Assembly (NCBI GenBank): GCA_041664925.1
Contig: JBAYJV010000004.1
Location: forward strand, 26,998 to 90,997
DNA from: Minisyncoccota bacterium
Lineage (GTDB): Bacteria > Patescibacteriota > Minisyncoccia > JBAYJV01
Direction: 5' to 3'
Length of the DNA: 64,000 bases
Shown here: piece by piece, positions 6,049 to 64,000 of the stretch
Layout of the letters: each line of letters starts with the position of its first letter
Position numbering within the stretch: position 1 is the first letter of the stretch
Notes under the pieces: model-generated
The model's input: the letters and a program-made list of their open reading frames with translations, nothing else
Database searches by the model: none
What the model was told of the DNA's origin: nothing
Translations under genes and position numbers: made by a program

Positions 6049-6060
6049 AAATGAAACGTA

Positions 6061-6108
6061 AGGCCTGGATGGGAATCGAACCCATATACACAGGGTTTTG
6101 TCCCAGAA
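6061..6108 (-). other. 3'-half tRNA-Cys-like fragment (positions 35 to 3' end; variable loop 2 nt longer than the intact copy) preceded by TTCTGGGA
   Basis: CAAAACCCTGTGTATATGGGTTCGATTCCCATCCAGGCCT matches the intact tRNA-Cys 3' half. Confidence 0.65.
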
Positions 6109-6196
6109 ACTTCTATTCCGCCTGCCTGACGGCAGTCAGGGTAGGCAGGGCATACTGGAATTAGAATTTCGGGATCCCGAATCACTATTTTCGGCA

Positions 6197-23047: not shown

Positions 23048-23078
23048 ATTGTAAAAAAGAAACAGACACATAGCGCTC

Positions 23079-23098
23079 CCTGCCTGCCGGCAGGCAGG
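23079..23098. repeat. Perfect 20-bp GC-rich palindrome CCTGCCTGCCGGCAGGCAGG (copy 1 of 3 identical)
   Basis: Exact self-complementary 20-mer about 30 nt upstream of tRNA-Val. Identical copies lie at 52438-52457 and 60096-60115. Confidence 0.9.
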
Positions 23099-23163
23099 TA
23101 ACCCCGTCCCAAGGACGGTCGGTCTTGGACCGAAACTGAGCTAATCGTCCTCTTTTAATAAAC

Positions 23164-52329: not shown

Positions 52330-52500
52330 AAATCTTTCAAATCCGAAAATCGAATATCGAAATTCGAAATAATATCTAATTTTTAATTTTCAAAGTATTA
52401 AAACGGTTTCGAATTTAAAATTTTAAATATTTGAATTCCTGCCTGCCGGCAGGCAGGTGTTTCGAGTTTCGTGCTTTAAAATTTCGGATTTAATTTAAAT
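52330..52500. repeat. MITE-like AT-rich repeat (family copy 1) with 'aaatccgaaaatcgaatatcgaaattcgaaat' terminal inverted repeats, carrying the 20-bp palindrome at 52438-52457
   Basis: Shares 'atatctaatttt', 'aaaacggtttcgaatttaaaat' and 'tttcgtgct' blocks with 63492-63660 and 61090-61222. Confidence 0.6.
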
Positions 52501-59297: not shown

Positions 59298-60005
59298 ATG
59301 AATATTTTCGATATTTTATTCCCTCCCCATTGTATTTCTTGTCAAAAAATCACCGATAATAAGTCTGTTTTTTATAAATACCTTTGTTCTGATTGTCTTC
59401 GAAAAATAAAGATAAATGAAGATGATATGTGTATTTCTTGTCATAATTTAACTCGATTTGGCAAAACCTGCTCCAGTTGTTCAAAAAATACACCTCTTAA
59501 TGGTTTGCTGGTTGCATCTGATTATAAAAATCCTATCTTAAAAGAAACTATTCATTATTTTAAATATAACAATGTTAAAGATCTTTCACTTCCCCTTTCT
59601 TGGGTTCTCTTAAAAAAATTAGAAGAATTTGAATGGAAAAATAAAGAAGAATGGATTTTTGTCCCAGTACCATTGGCAAAAAAACGCCTTAAATTTCGCG
59701 GATTTAATCAGACAGAACTTTTGGCGCGAAATTTAGCTAAATGGCTTAACATTTTCGTATCTTCTGCTATAATAGAGAGAGTCAAATTTCATACTCCTCA
59801 GATGCAGATCGAAAATAATCAAGAAAGGCTTGAAAATATTAAAAATAGTTTTAGGATAGTAAAGAACCTTGATCTGCTAAAAATAAGAAATAAAAGAATA
59901 ATGCTCGTTGATGATGTTTCAACAACAGGAGCAACTTTGTCTGAGTGCGCGAAAGTTCTTAAACCTCACGTTAAAGAGATTTGGGGATGCGTCGTAGCAA
60001 AGTGA
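59298..60005 (+). CDS. comF: ComF family competence protein (phosphoribosyltransferase-like)
   Basis: N-terminal Zn-finger 'CISCQ...CSDC...CISC...CSSC' and a C-terminal PRTase 'IMLVDDVSTTGATL'. Confidence 0.75.
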   Translation: MNIFDILFPPHCISCQKITDNKSVFYKYLCSDCLRKIKINEDDMCISCHNLTRFGKTCSSCSKNTPLNGLLVASDYKNPILKETIHYFKYNNVKDLSLPLSWVLLKKLEEFEWKNKEEWIFVPVPLAKKRLKFRGFNQTELLARNLAKWLNIFVSSAIIERVKFHTPQMQIENNQERLENIKNSFRIVKNLDLLKIRNKRIMLVDDVSTTGATLSECAKVLKPHVKEIWGCVVAK

Positions 60006-60079
60006 AAAGTTTAAAATTAAAAGTGCAAAGTAAGAAGTCTCTGTTGTTTTGCGTTTTTCACTTTGCGTTTTACGCTTTT

Positions 60080-60128
60080 GGAAGGGTGGCTGAGACCTGC
60101 CTGCCGGCAGGCAGGGGCTGAAAGCAAC
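60080..60128 (+). other. Duplicated 5' portion (nt 1-29) of tRNA-Ser(GCT), precisely interrupted in the D-loop by the 20-bp palindrome (60096-60115)
   Basis: GGAAGGGTGGCTGAGA[CCTGCCTGCCGGCAGGCAGG]GGCTGAAAGCAAC. The parts flanking the palindrome equal the first 29 nt of the intact tRNA-Ser. Confidence 0.8.
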
Positions 60129-60139
60129 AAATATAAGAT

Positions 60140-60364
60140 ATGTTTTATGTTTATTTTCTAAAAAGTAAAAAAGATAATAATTTATATATAGGTCGGACAA
60201 ATAATATCAAAAGAAGATTCTGTGAACATAATGCAGGTAGTGTGCCTTCTACAAAATCGAGAAAACCATTCATACTTTTAGGATATGAAACATGCGAAAC
60301 TGAAAAAGAATCAGTAGAAAAAGAGAAATTGAGTTCAAAAAAGGATATAAGAGAGAAGAACTAA
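60140..60364 (+). CDS. Small GIY-YIG nuclease-domain protein
   Basis: 'FYVYFLKS.KDNNLYIGRTNNIKRRFCEHNAG...SRKPFILLGYE' matches the GIY-YIG catalytic core (GIY...YIG...R...E...N). Confidence 0.7.
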   Translation: MFYVYFLKSKKDNNLYIGRTNNIKRRFCEHNAGSVPSTKSRKPFILLGYETCETEKESVEKEKLSSKKDIREKN

Positions 60365-60388
60365 GAAGAAAATACAATCCATAAAAAT

Positions 60389-60479
60389 GGAAGGGTGGCT
60401 GAGAGGCTGAAAGCAACGGTTTGCTAAACCGTTAACTGCCTTTATAAGCGGTTCGAGGGTTCGAATCCCTCCCCTTCCG
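60389..60479 (+). tRNA. tRNA-Ser (anticodon GCT)
   Basis: Acceptor GGAAGGG/CCCTTCC, anticodon stem ACGGT/ACCGT, loop TTGCTAA, long variable arm and GGTTCGAATCC. GC-rich hairpins follow at 60482-60560. Confidence 0.85.
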
Positions 60480-60624
60480 CCTTCGCCCGCCATAGCGGGC
60501 TTCGGCGGACGATGTCCGCAGAAGAACGCGACGGCGGGATTCGCCTATTTGAGAAATATTTAAAATCTGGTTCAGGTCGAGATTTTGCAAATAAACACCT
60601 AATTTAAATTCACCTTATTTAACC

Positions 60625-61089
60625 ATGCCCAAATCTCTTTTTTCTTGGAAGGCTCATGAATTTGAACAGCAAAAAAAAGGACCAATGTGGTTTGTCGTCT
60701 TCGCCTTAATTGCTTTGGGTCTGATTTTTCTTGCTTTTTGGTGGAAAGCTTTTACGATGATGGTTTTTCTTATCTTGGCCGTTTTTTTGATTATTATTTA
60801 TGCTTTAAAAGAACCGCGTACTGTTAATTTTTCCATAACACCATTAGGAGTGGATATAGACAATGTATTGTATAAATATTCAGATATGAGCTCTTTCTGG
60901 ATTTTTTATGAACCTCCTGAAATAAAAGAATTAAATATTAAACTGACTAGAGGGTTTTTCCCTCATCTATCTATTCCTCTTGGAAAAACTGATCCCAATG
61001 ATATAAGGAGAATTTTACTTGAATATATTCCAGAGAAAAAAGAAAAATTATCGGTAGCCGATGGTATTGCAAGAAAACTTAGGTTCTAA
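60625..61089 (+). CDS. Hypothetical membrane protein (2 TM)
   Basis: A 154-aa ORF. No family could be recognised. Confidence 0.4.
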   Translation: MPKSLFSWKAHEFEQQKKGPMWFVVFALIALGLIFLAFWWKAFTMMVFLILAVFLIIIYALKEPRTVNFSITPLGVDIDNVLYKYSDMSSFWIFYEPPEIKELNIKLTRGFFPHLSIPLGKTDPNDIRRILLEYIPEKKEKLSVADGIARKLRF

Positions 61090-61222
61090 GCACGAAATCC
61101 TAATATCGAAATCCGAAACAATATTAAAATTAAAAAAATATGAAATTAAAAACAGTTTCGACCTACGCTTATTAGCAAATAGGTGTTTCGAATTTCGTGC
61201 TTCGAGTTTCGAATTTAATCGG
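61090..61222. repeat. MITE-like AT-rich repeat (family copy) with terminal inverted repeats gcacgaaat...atttcgtgc
   Basis: Left end 'gcacgaaatcctaatatcgaaatccgaaacaatatt' and right end 'ggtgtttcgaatttcgtgcttcgagtttcgaattt'. It abuts tRNA-Arg. Confidence 0.55.
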
Positions 61223-61223
61223 T

Positions 61224-61297
61224 GTCCCCATAGCTCAATTGGATAGAGCGTCAGCTTGCGGAGCTGAAGGTTGGAAGTTCAAGCCTTCCTGGGGACG
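61224..61297 (+). tRNA. tRNA-Arg (anticodon GCG)
   Basis: GTCCCCATAGCTCAATTGGATAGAGC, anticodon stem TCAGC/GCTGA, loop TTGCGGA (G37), GGAAGTTCAAGCCTTCC, discriminator G. Confidence 0.7.
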
Positions 61298-61313
61298 CAT
61301 ATAAAAAGGCATT

Positions 61314-63491: not shown

Positions 63492-63660
63492 TTAAATCCG
63501 AAATCCTAATTTCCCTGACTGCCGTCAGGCAGGGAAATTCGAAACAATATCTAATTTTCAAAATCCTAAATTTAAAACCGTTTTGAATTTAAAATGTTTT
63601 CTTAATTTAAATATTGTTTCGGATTTCAGATTTCGATATTCGAATTTAATAACATGTTTT
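63492..63660. repeat. MITE-like AT-rich repeat (family copy) with TIRs and an internal imperfect GC-rich palindrome (63513-63534)
   Basis: 'aaatccgaaatcctaatttCCCTGACTGCCGTCAGGCAGGGaaattcgaaacaatatctaatttt...tgtttcggatttcagatttcgatattcgaattt'. The ends are inverted copies of each other. Confidence 0.6.
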
Positions 63661-64000
63661 CCTTATTTAAATCACCAATTTGGCTTATTAATTTGATCGT
63701 TTTTTTGTTGCCAATATATCTTTTAAAGATAAAAGTTGGTATTTTTTCGACAAATTTTCTTGAATTACTCATTCTTATTCTTTTAATTATGCAATTACCA
63801 AAAATAAATTTTCGTAAATTAGGCCAATACGTAAAATCAAATAAACTATTATCAATAGGAGTTGGGCTATTATTGACAGGCACTTTTGTTTCCACATTGG
63901 TTTCAGATAATTTAATAGCTAGCTTAGGGATTTTAAAAAGTTGGTTTATTATTCCCCTTATTTTTGCTTTAATTATCATCAATCAAGATTCTGAGATTCT
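63655..64000 (+). CDS. Polytopic membrane protein, 3'-truncated by the window end (hypothetical; O-antigen-ligase/polymerase-like hydrophobic profile)
   Basis: An ATG at 63655 opens a frame with no stop to the window end. The product is strongly hydrophobic with multi-TM character. It is preferred over the overlapping minus-strand ORF 63626-63982. Confidence 0.35.

Follow-up and report, generated by a model that had tools for sequence, protein, structure and literature searches.

Organization of the tRNA-Ser(GCT) locus

The stretch of DNA analysed here, referred to throughout as the window, comprises 64,000 nucleotides (nt) of contig JBAYJV010000004.1 (positions 26,998 to 90,997, assembly GCA_041664925.1) of a Minisyncoccota bacterium from the Patescibacteriota, and is AT-rich (35% GC). 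The locus of interest consists of an intact tRNA-Ser(GCT) gene, of an interrupted second copy of the 5' end of that gene, and of an open reading frame (ORF), located between the two, for a small protein belonging to the superfamily of GIY-YIG nucleases. We give the name GIY-1 to the family of cassettes to which this arrangement belongs.

The intact tRNA-Ser(GCT) gene, which is the one that carries the cassette, spans positions 60389-60481 of the forward strand (ARAGORN; Rfam RF00005, 59.7 bits). The displaced fragment lies upstream on the same strand and is split in two: part A corresponds to nt 1-16 of the tRNA (60080-60095, identical to 60389-60404) and part B' to nt 17-29 (60116-60128, identical to 60405-60417). 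The two parts are separated by a 20-bp perfect palindrome, CCTGCCTGCCGGCAGGCAGG (60096-60115, hereafter PAL), which equals its own reverse complement and is placed just 5' of the GG of the D-loop. An initial annotation of the window had claimed that the first 29 nt of tRNA-Ser(GCT) are duplicated 309 nt upstream, and that a perfect 20-bp palindrome sits cleanly inside the upstream copy. Both statements are correct: the 29-nt identical prefix is regained by excising exactly 60096-60115, no other excision register works, and a repeat search detects each half separately, as a direct repeat of 17 nt spaced by 309 nt and one of 16 nt spaced by 289 nt.

An Rfam E-value scan of the region 59900-60700 returned the tRNA as its sole match, with no intron, riboswitch or leader family, which rules out a known RNA family of these kinds at the locus. 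A group I or group II intron in the tRNA gene was rejected on the same scan, which contains no intron RNA, and by the fact that the tRNA is contiguous.

The GIY-YIG gene and its frameshift in the window

As now read, the ORF (60140-60364, forward strand) encodes 74 amino acids (aa) and matches the GIY-YIG domain PF01541 of Pfam with 55.1 bits (E = 1e-14; cut-off 22.6). The GIY-YIG core that the initial annotation saw in this ORF is therefore confirmed; the reading frame on which it relied is truncated by a frameshift, the homologs being about 80 aa long. The ORF is a FRAMESHIFTED member of this 80-aa family. Homologs range from 79 to 86 aa and end in ...EKEIEFKKGYKREELKKKYNL, and in the window the same ending lies in the −1 frame: three-frame translation identifies the ancestral C-terminal frame at 60325-60384 of the forward strand (EIEFKKGYKREELRRKYNP and a stop), matching the C-terminus of the family. 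In a DNA alignment with locus L001 the cause appears as a 2-nt insertion at approximately 60324-60325 (GTAGAAAAAGAGAAATTG here versus GTAGAAAAAGAAATTG in L001). Upon correction of the frame the Pfam score rises to 58.2 bits and the domain is covered full-length. The window copy retains the conserved catalytic residues through E62, and the frameshift costs it the conserved last helix (E64, K66, K67, G68, R71, E72). Judging from its reading frame, the window cassette is dead, and its ORF is now a frameshifted pseudogene; its value is as an entry point to the family.

The lesion is real, because the same 74-aa product is found in three independent assemblies (ENA, JGI/NCBI, Logan), which excludes an assembly error; the 74-aa ORF is also identical to P0001, a protein annotated in a Candidatus Paceibacterota metagenome-assembled genome. 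A split gene, in which the ORF would run through the tRNA and on into frame FEKYLKSGSGRDF downstream of it, is rejected by the alignment of the homologs: the corresponding chimera scored best in Pfam (61 bits), yet the C-terminus of the homologs is that of the −1 frame, and this downstream sequence is left over from another gene.

In alignments of the family, residues Y5, Y16, G18, R26, H30 and E62, which are the catalytic residues of GIY-YIG enzymes, are invariant, and the AlphaFold model of P0002, an intact relative with 94% identity, shows the alpha/beta GIY-YIG fold with a predicted local distance difference test score of 95. A profile search (hmmsearch) of the Protein Data Bank (PDB) matched 1zg2 (E = 9e-11), 1ywl (5e-9), SLX1 (8.5e-4) and I-TevI (0.16); the top structural matches in Foldseek followed the same order, with 1zg2 (UPF0213 protein BH0048), SLX1, I-TevI and the N-terminal domain of UvrC. 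The length of the family corresponds to the catalytic domain alone, with neither a linker nor a DNA-binding domain. This is not the classical architecture of I-TevI, Seg and Mob enzymes (catalytic domain, linker and DNA-binding domain, about 200-260 aa), and the model for group I intron endonucleases, TIGR01453, scores 20.8 bits, far under its cut-off of 56. Nor is it that of SLX1 proper, as the protein stops after the nuclease domain at 80 aa and has no C-terminal RING/zinc finger. We thus assign the enzyme, a predicted nuclease, to the GIY-YIG superfamily as a minimal domain of the YhbQ/SLX1 type (UPF0213, URI branch). SLX1 selects branched or hairpin DNA by its structure, and kinship to such a structure-selective nuclease would fit a hairpin- or loop-directed activity. 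We know of no YhbQ-type gene that is mobile or linked to tRNA. The usual homing endonuclease genes combine a large DNA-binding domain with an intron, or with a recodable protein gene, that spares the host; the idea of the initial annotation that the enzyme is a classic homing endonuclease does not hold for a bare 80-aa YhbQ/SLX1-type domain devoid of a DNA-binding domain. The ratio of nonsynonymous to synonymous substitution rates (dN/dS) of the ORF ranges over 0.02-0.12, and dS reaches about 1.1: on this measure the ORF of the family is under strong purifying selection.

A cassette family in Patescibacteria

Genomic contexts were collected by script for the loci of the homologs, and for 34 family loci from species-representative Patescibacteria genomes. 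PAL is found upstream of the ORF at 40 of 40 homologous loci, 34 of them in genomes of distinct Patescibacteria species; at 38 of the 40 the contig also contains the tRNA, which is always cognate to the fragment. In these 38 modules the order is constant: nt 1-16 of the tRNA, PAL, nt 17 to about 25-38, a spacer of 3-30 nt, ATG, the ORF, and the intact tRNA. Fragment A is present in every module (38/38), and the 3' end of B' may fall elsewhere than in the window, anywhere from nt 25 to nt 38. In 35 modules PAL follows nt 16/17 and immediately precedes the invariant GG of the D-loop. The gap between ORF and tRNA is 0-24 nt, occasionally about 100 nt, and sometimes the ORF overlaps the tRNA; some ORFs have no stop of their own and run into the tRNA (endings of the type '...GGVA*'), and therefore the right edge of the foreign DNA essentially coincides with the end of the ORF.

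The targets are tRNA-Ser(GCT) in 20 modules, Ser(GGA) in 13, Ser(TGA) in 3, and Ser(CGA) and Cys(GCA) in one each. The check proposed with the initial annotation, a search of other genomes for the same ORF beside partial tRNA duplications, thus returned 38 loci and five tRNA species. All 38 modules show the layout of a segment-duplication cassette, in which an ORF is flanked by a duplicated part of its target and a functional copy is kept. PAL cannot be regarded as an incidental insertion into a dead fragment, as the initial description of the upstream copy might suggest, being an invariant component of every family member.

Neither PAL nor a tRNA accompanies the more distant GIY-YIG relatives outside Patescibacteria or the members of a sister subfamily. 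In this sister subfamily (P0012, P0017; L070 1480-1800, L071 1440-1745), which is not linked to tRNA genes, the ORF lies between short inverted repeats (CCCCCACACCAATT ... TTGGTGTGGGGG), as though it had been placed at the center of a palindrome.

Mobility of the cassette

One sign of mobility is an empty site in locus L061, where the ComF gene is followed directly by the intact tRNA-Ser(GCT), with no fragment, PAL or ORF. The ComF of L061 is 91% identical to that of the window, and the left flank is shared (...gcgataaaattt, then GGAAGGG). The same site is occupied in L003, L004, L001 and the window, and L061 comes from the same metagenome as the occupied allele L004. A metagenome scan with ComF returned two loci only, enough to establish a single empty site, though too few for population statistics. 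This presence/absence polymorphism contradicts the tRNA-processing or repair arrangement that the initial annotation had offered as an alternative.

Further indications come from the relationships among modules. Clades of the protein tree intermix the targets Ser(GCT), Ser(GGA), Ser(CGA), Ser(TGA) and Cys. Stacked or re-invaded modules occur: L035 contains three identical junctions of part A with PAL, a second module, devoid of an ORF, separates the ORF of L043 from the tRNA, and in L007 and L040 the sequence to the left of the fragment is a repeat of the 3' end of a GIY-YIG ORF. In all these cases the junctions are again at nt 16/17. A decay series can also be recognized, from intact modules through the frameshifted window copy and a 35-aa stump in L053 to relics without an ORF, which are found upstream of tRNA-Arg in L001 and at two sites in the window, in a second copy of tRNA-Cys (6060-6140) and upstream of tRNA-Val (23069-23152). 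On the basis of the empty site in L061, the stacked modules and the ORF-less relics we conclude that the cassette is mobile; together with the empty site and the stacking, the use of five tRNA species supports the proposal of the initial annotation that this is a small endonuclease-bearing mobile element that targets and partly duplicates a tRNA gene.

At some loci the fragment and the intact tRNA differ in origin. The tRNA-Arg gene is identical in the window (61224-61298), L003 and L061, and the PAL-bearing tRNA-Arg fragment of L001 agrees with this native type in 31 of 32 nt; the intact tRNA-Arg(GCG) of L001 differs from it by compensated changes that extend through the D-, anticodon- and T-arms. 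This locus, with no ORF remaining, looks like a case of horizontal tRNA gene replacement. In L006 the tRNA-Cys fragment has the acceptor sequence GGCCTGG, and the intact gene has GGCCACG, paired with CGTGGCC. Fragment and intact tRNA being different in L001 and L006, incoming DNA can therefore bring a replacement tRNA sequence. In the window the fragment and the tRNA are identical over 29 nt, and the origins of the two are indistinguishable; likewise, in the Ser modules part A, part B' and the 5' part of the tRNA are nearly identical in sequence, so that element-borne and native parts cannot be told apart.

Some features of the relics are worth recording. In L001 (4213-4355) PAL follows nt ~21 of the native-type tRNA-Arg 5' fragment, which ends 8 nt upstream of the differing intact gene. 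The window relic at 6060-6140 (reverse strand) consists of a compound PAL (6121-6140, with remnants of the outer arms just beyond this range) and of a degenerate second tRNA-Cys, which lies between tRNA-Cys and tRNA-Leu(TAA) and is well kept from the anticodon arm to the 3' end; the compound PAL occupies its D-loop position. In L006 the interval between tRNA-Cys and tRNA-Leu contains instead a LAGLIDADG-like ORF. The relic at 23069-23152 (reverse strand) is a tRNA-like 5' fragment of the form GGACGATTAGCTCAGTTT..GGTTA-PAL-GAGCGC, located 31 nt upstream of tRNA-Val; its D-loop carries PAL (23079-23098), here too after nt ~21, before GAGC and, before GG, a separate 29-nt GC-rich double hairpin (cggtccaagaccgaccgtccttgggacgg), which suggests that other hairpin elements use the same niche.

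Conservation and dispersal of the palindrome

The window contains three exact copies of PAL and two with two mismatches, where none is expected (100 shuffles). Among all simple 20-nt copies, 22 of 33 are the exact consensus and the mean pairwise identity is 97%, while the proteins that accompany them share just 50-70% identity. Between L001 and L003 there are no differences in 69 nt (a 41-nt compound PAL plus both halves of the fragment), to be compared with a dS of about 1.1 for the ORF. At the level of sequence, PAL is thus more conserved than the nuclease protein. The frequent variant C13T (10 loci) keeps a G-T/U pair on the ORF strand only, and its orientation is constant among simple modules. 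In the compound forms (L001, L003, L046, L053) an inner PAL is found at or beside the center of the first one, in inverted orientation. Protein recognition is the most economical explanation of these data, because structure alone would not demand such invariance; PAL is probably recognized by a protein, a role for which the co-evolving nuclease is the obvious candidate, as a dimer at the symmetric site. No run of T follows PAL, and a terminator scan calls none; intrinsic terminator function, or a sigma-70 promoter nearby, was considered for PAL and found by simple scanning in neither case.

PAL is also found away from tRNA genes. One solo copy (52438-52457) is intergenic, with flanks that are not tRNA-like; a second, PAL-like one with two mismatches (63514-63533) lies 23 nt past the stop of RecG, and its flanks, AATTTC and GAAATT, extend the palindrome. 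The proximity of PAL to the annotated tRNAs of the window is statistically weak (2 of 5 copies within 150 nt, P = 0.03), the reason being that 293 nt separate the PAL of the module itself from its tRNA. Further copies in L001, L018, L028, L036 and L043 qualify PAL as a dispersed palindromic repeat; among them, the additional PALs of L018 (1328, 1938), L028 (1929) and L036 (2043) are located 90-300 nt downstream of the module tRNA, those of L028 and L036 at homologous sites (gattcgaaYgacg-PAL-gagcatgt). PAL does not qualify as a repetitive extragenic palindrome (REP) with its REP-associated tyrosine transposase (RAYT), nor as a miniature inverted-repeat transposable element (MITE) with a transposase: the GIY-YIG ORF is the sole linked gene and no target-site duplication is seen at any PAL. 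The 20-mer is not exclusive to the modules of Patescibacteria, as exact copies occur in viral contigs of IMG/VR (L062-L066), in some cases several to a contig and with flanks that recur; these contigs are GC-rich, with no tRNA or GIY-YIG gene nearby, and are uninformative with respect to a phage origin. In the window, short repeats of the CGAAAT/TTCGAA type are present in AT-rich intergenic stretches near solo PALs and tRNA genes (52340-52500, 61100-61200, 63495-63680, 6150-6190).

The flanks of the tRNA-Ser(GCT) gene

The tRNA is followed directly by a GC-rich long hairpin (60482-60547, forward strand; folding energy −37.9 kcal/mol, z = −3.6), which is unique within the window. The initial annotation had described a triple hairpin at 60482-60560 and suggested that it might be the other end of the element. 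The segment folds as one long imperfect hairpin (60482-60547), varies independently of GIY-1, and is the leader of a separate downstream cassette. L003 (2385-2735) and L004 (2361-2724) each have two units in tandem, the first one identical to this hairpin, and there the units precede an intact and different GIY-YIG gene, GIY-2 (78 aa; PF01541, E = 1.5e-14). In the window only a remnant of GIY-2 follows the hairpin (60548-60607, forward strand), comprising the last 19 codons and the stop (FEKYLKSGSGRDFANKHLI), with about 245 bp deleted relative to L003/L004. The hairpin is absent from the other GIY-1 modules; at the same position L061 (3313-3777) has three copies of an unrelated hairpin and then a third type of GIY-YIG gene, and L001 (3490-3560) has yet other hairpins and no GIY-YIG gene. 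On these grounds the hairpin is rejected as the other end of GIY-1. Since the hairpins and GIY-YIG genes at this position differ among L001, L003/L004 and L061, tRNA-Ser(GCT) has in its 3' flank a second, independent hotspot.

On the opposite side, the interval from the ComF stop codon to the tRNA fragment includes some 60 nt (window 60006-60079) that are missing in L003 and L061; this region includes a 12-bp perfect inverted repeat (59997-60008/60055-60066) and a 14-nt tandem repeat (60048-60075). A 17-nt inverted repeat with 94% complementarity (59973-59989/60624-60640), formed by the ComF-like gene at its 3' end and by a downstream membrane-protein gene at its start, encloses the entire tRNA-Ser hotspot, and may be due to chance.

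Proposed mechanism and alternative explanations

We regard it as probable that the locus is a decayed copy of a mobile GIY-1 cassette, which spreads by target-preserving nuclease homing and whose PAL is recognized by a protein. According to this hypothesis, the nuclease would break a cassette-free tRNA gene in or near the region coding for the D-loop; the recurring junctions point to nt 16/17, 5' of the invariant GG, as a recurrent breakpoint. Repair from a cassette-bearing copy would supply PAL, the ORF, and the intact tRNA or its intact 5' part. Because of this supply the essential tRNA would survive, and the former 5' piece would stay as a fragment, with PAL interrupting the leftover copy of the target. 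Stacked modules would arise naturally from out-of-register repair. Candidate roles for PAL are the disruption of the residual target, an autoregulatory operator, an immunity site, a cleavage or recognition site, and a 5' hairpin in the mRNA. An autoregulatory operator is known for I-TevI.

Several observations weigh against homing of this kind. Recognition of a long specific site is more than would be expected of a bare 80-aa catalytic domain acting alone. The occupied allele retains an intact tRNA, and thus an intact putative target, so that self-immunity is unaccounted for. After a switch from Ser to Cys both halves of the fragment match the new target, which is beyond simple homing; a fresh duplication or later gene conversion must therefore be invoked. 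In 3 of the 38 modules PAL is placed elsewhere, after nt 5-9. The solo PALs outside tRNA (52438, 63514) and the nesting of PAL in PAL indicate that the palindrome may move independently of the ORF. Finally, a simple promoter scan finds no promoter at the locus, and a single empty-site allele was recovered.

Two explanations give more weight to the palindrome. PAL and the 80-aa SLX1/YhbQ-like nuclease might together form a palindrome-guided mobile system of a new class, a GIY-YIG analogue of REP/RAYT pairs with tRNA genes as safe harbours, which we consider possible but doubtful. A dimer of the domain-only GIY-YIG protein would recognize a hairpin or cruciform (PAL, or the D-arm of the tRNA gene) and cut in its loop, and repair would spread both an autonomous unit (PAL, ORF and replacement tRNA) and non-autonomous solo PALs. 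It is unlikely, in our judgment, that PAL is itself the primary mobile unit, a REP- or MITE-like repeat that enters hairpin loops (the D-loop of a tRNA, the center of another PAL) and is mobilized by the nuclease, with tRNA duplication as the sole survivable outcome when PAL enters an essential tRNA gene. Its dispersal (five copies in the window, two of them with no tRNA association) and the inverted inner copies at or next to the palindrome center (L001, L003, L046, L053) would be explained, as would the ORF-less, PAL-bearing tRNA fragments upstream of tRNA-Val, tRNA-Cys and tRNA-Arg; a nuclease closest to the structure-specific SLX1 and to YhbQ, the ORF of the sister subfamily lying between short inverted repeats, like a split palindrome, and a conservation of PAL that exceeds that of the protein are also in its favor. 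However, GIY-YIG nucleases have no known means of copying a palindrome, and while PAL has the same place at every ORF, the majority of solo PALs are not close to any ORF. Deletion of the ORF accounts equally well for the relics that lack it, and L043 represents an intermediate of this process.

A fixed arrangement beneficial to the host, in which a tRNA-like hairpin leader would act as a cis-regulatory or processing element for a domesticated, co-transcribed and vertically inherited nuclease, could account for the constant co-orientation and tight spacing of fragment, ORF and tRNA, with 0-20 nt from the ORF stop to the tRNA, for purifying selection on the ORF, for a conservation of PAL and fragment past the neutral expectation, and for the C13T variant, which keeps a G-U pair on the sense strand only at 10 loci. 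It is nevertheless very unlikely given the empty-site allele in a close relative, five tRNA targets interleaved in the protein tree, and the existence of stacked and pseudogenized copies, including that of the window; moreover, Rfam has no family for such a leader. The eroded scar of an island or prophage inserted by an integrase comes to mind because tRNA genes are classical integration sites and such islands are flanked by partial tRNA duplications. Here the duplicated part is the 5' rather than the 3' end, the entire insert is about 310 bp, no integrase is found among some 40 loci, and the layout is identical each time, with the same 80-aa ORF and palindrome; this explanation is effectively refuted. 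A negligible probability also attaches to chance similarity or an assembly artefact, with no PAL matches in the shuffled sequences, the locus present in three independent assemblies, and the architecture repeated in 34 species genomes.

If target-preserving homing is correct, GIY-1 would show how minimal a selfish nuclease element can be, explain why the AT-rich, reduced genomes of Patescibacteria contain tRNA gene fragments and GC-rich palindromes, document horizontal replacement of tRNA genes in these bacteria, and provide biochemistry with a very small, possibly structure-guided nuclease together with a defined 20-bp partner sequence. In genome annotation, many genes for a 'GIY-YIG nuclease family protein' located beside tRNA-Ser could then be flagged as mobile cassettes. 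The family apparently differs from usual homing systems in its bare domain, in having an essential tRNA as landing site, in the duplication that saves this tRNA, and in the near-invariant PAL, which may supply recognition, immunity or regulation.

Comparison with known systems

The cassette, comprising a GIY-YIG gene, a split 5' tRNA fragment and an intact tRNA, apparently represents an undescribed mobile family across Patescibacteria. Full-text literature searches with the palindrome, and with the combination of GIY-YIG, tRNA and Patescibacteria, returned no description of it, and recent surveys of tRNA introns and rRNA insertions in Patescibacteria do not mention it.

With respect to the enzyme, the best profile and fold matches are to the UPF0213/YhbQ and SLX1 proteins (PDB 1zg2, 1ywl, 6seh, 7cq3), which GIY-1 resembles in domain size and catalytic residues; SLX1, however, has a RING domain and needs SLX4, and neither feature applies to GIY-1. 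With respect to the palindrome, the GC clusters of yeast mitochondria (PMC4478555) and bacterial REP sequences are, like PAL, short, GC-rich, hairpin-forming repeats dispersed in an AT-rich genome, with merging and nesting of units and a hairpin constraint. PAL differs from them in being a perfect 20-bp palindrome, near-invariant across distant lineages, with a fixed place in a nuclease cassette, and in having no visible target-site duplication and no linked RAYT-type transposase.

Two systems combine GIY-YIG proteins with genes for structural RNAs. SegB of phage T4 is a GIY-YIG homing endonuclease that recognizes a tRNA-gene motif and causes the co-transfer of neighbouring tRNA genes (PMC2330249). 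Like GIY-1 it is encoded by a free-standing gene among tRNA genes, but it is a full-length, multi-domain enzyme with a 27-bp site that includes the T-psi-C motif (PMC2330249), and it is phage-borne, with neither a duplicated tRNA fragment nor a palindrome, whereas GIY-1 is chromosomal. The rRNA genes of the candidate phyla radiation contain non-intron insertions that encode GIY-YIG proteins, often at the tops of stem-loops (PMC11270868). These share with GIY-1 the phylum and the presence of GIY-YIG ORFs in structural RNA genes outside group I or group II introns (PMC11270868). They interrupt the rRNA and need to be removed from the RNA, while the tRNA of GIY-1 remains contiguous through duplication, and neither a palindrome nor a tRNA association is reported for them (PMC11270868).

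The closest parallel in organization is provided by the mobile ORFs (mORFs) of fungal mitochondria (Allomyces atp6; Glomus atp6, atp9, cox2 and nad3), which carry a replacement gene end (PMC3630166). In these a LAGLIDADG or GIY-YIG ORF lies in a host gene together with a duplicated part of that gene, which remains functional while the native piece is displaced (PMC3630166); as with GIY-1, they are present or absent among relatives, and the displaced and functional pieces may differ in origin, as in the tRNA-Arg of L001 and the tRNA-Cys of L006. GIY-1 can be viewed as their mirror image; it duplicates the 5' end of its target, mORFs the 3' end of a protein-coding gene. Unlike mORFs, it resides in a bacterial chromosome and targets a tRNA, which precludes immunity by synonymous recoding, its nuclease is a bare 80-aa domain, and its displaced fragment is in every case divided by the 20-bp palindrome, which is invariant. 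Selfish endonuclease cassettes with a partial duplication of the target are a kind of element already known; what is new is the bacterial tRNA target, the duplication of the 5' end, a minimal enzyme of the YhbQ/SLX1 type and, as an obligatory part, the conserved palindrome.

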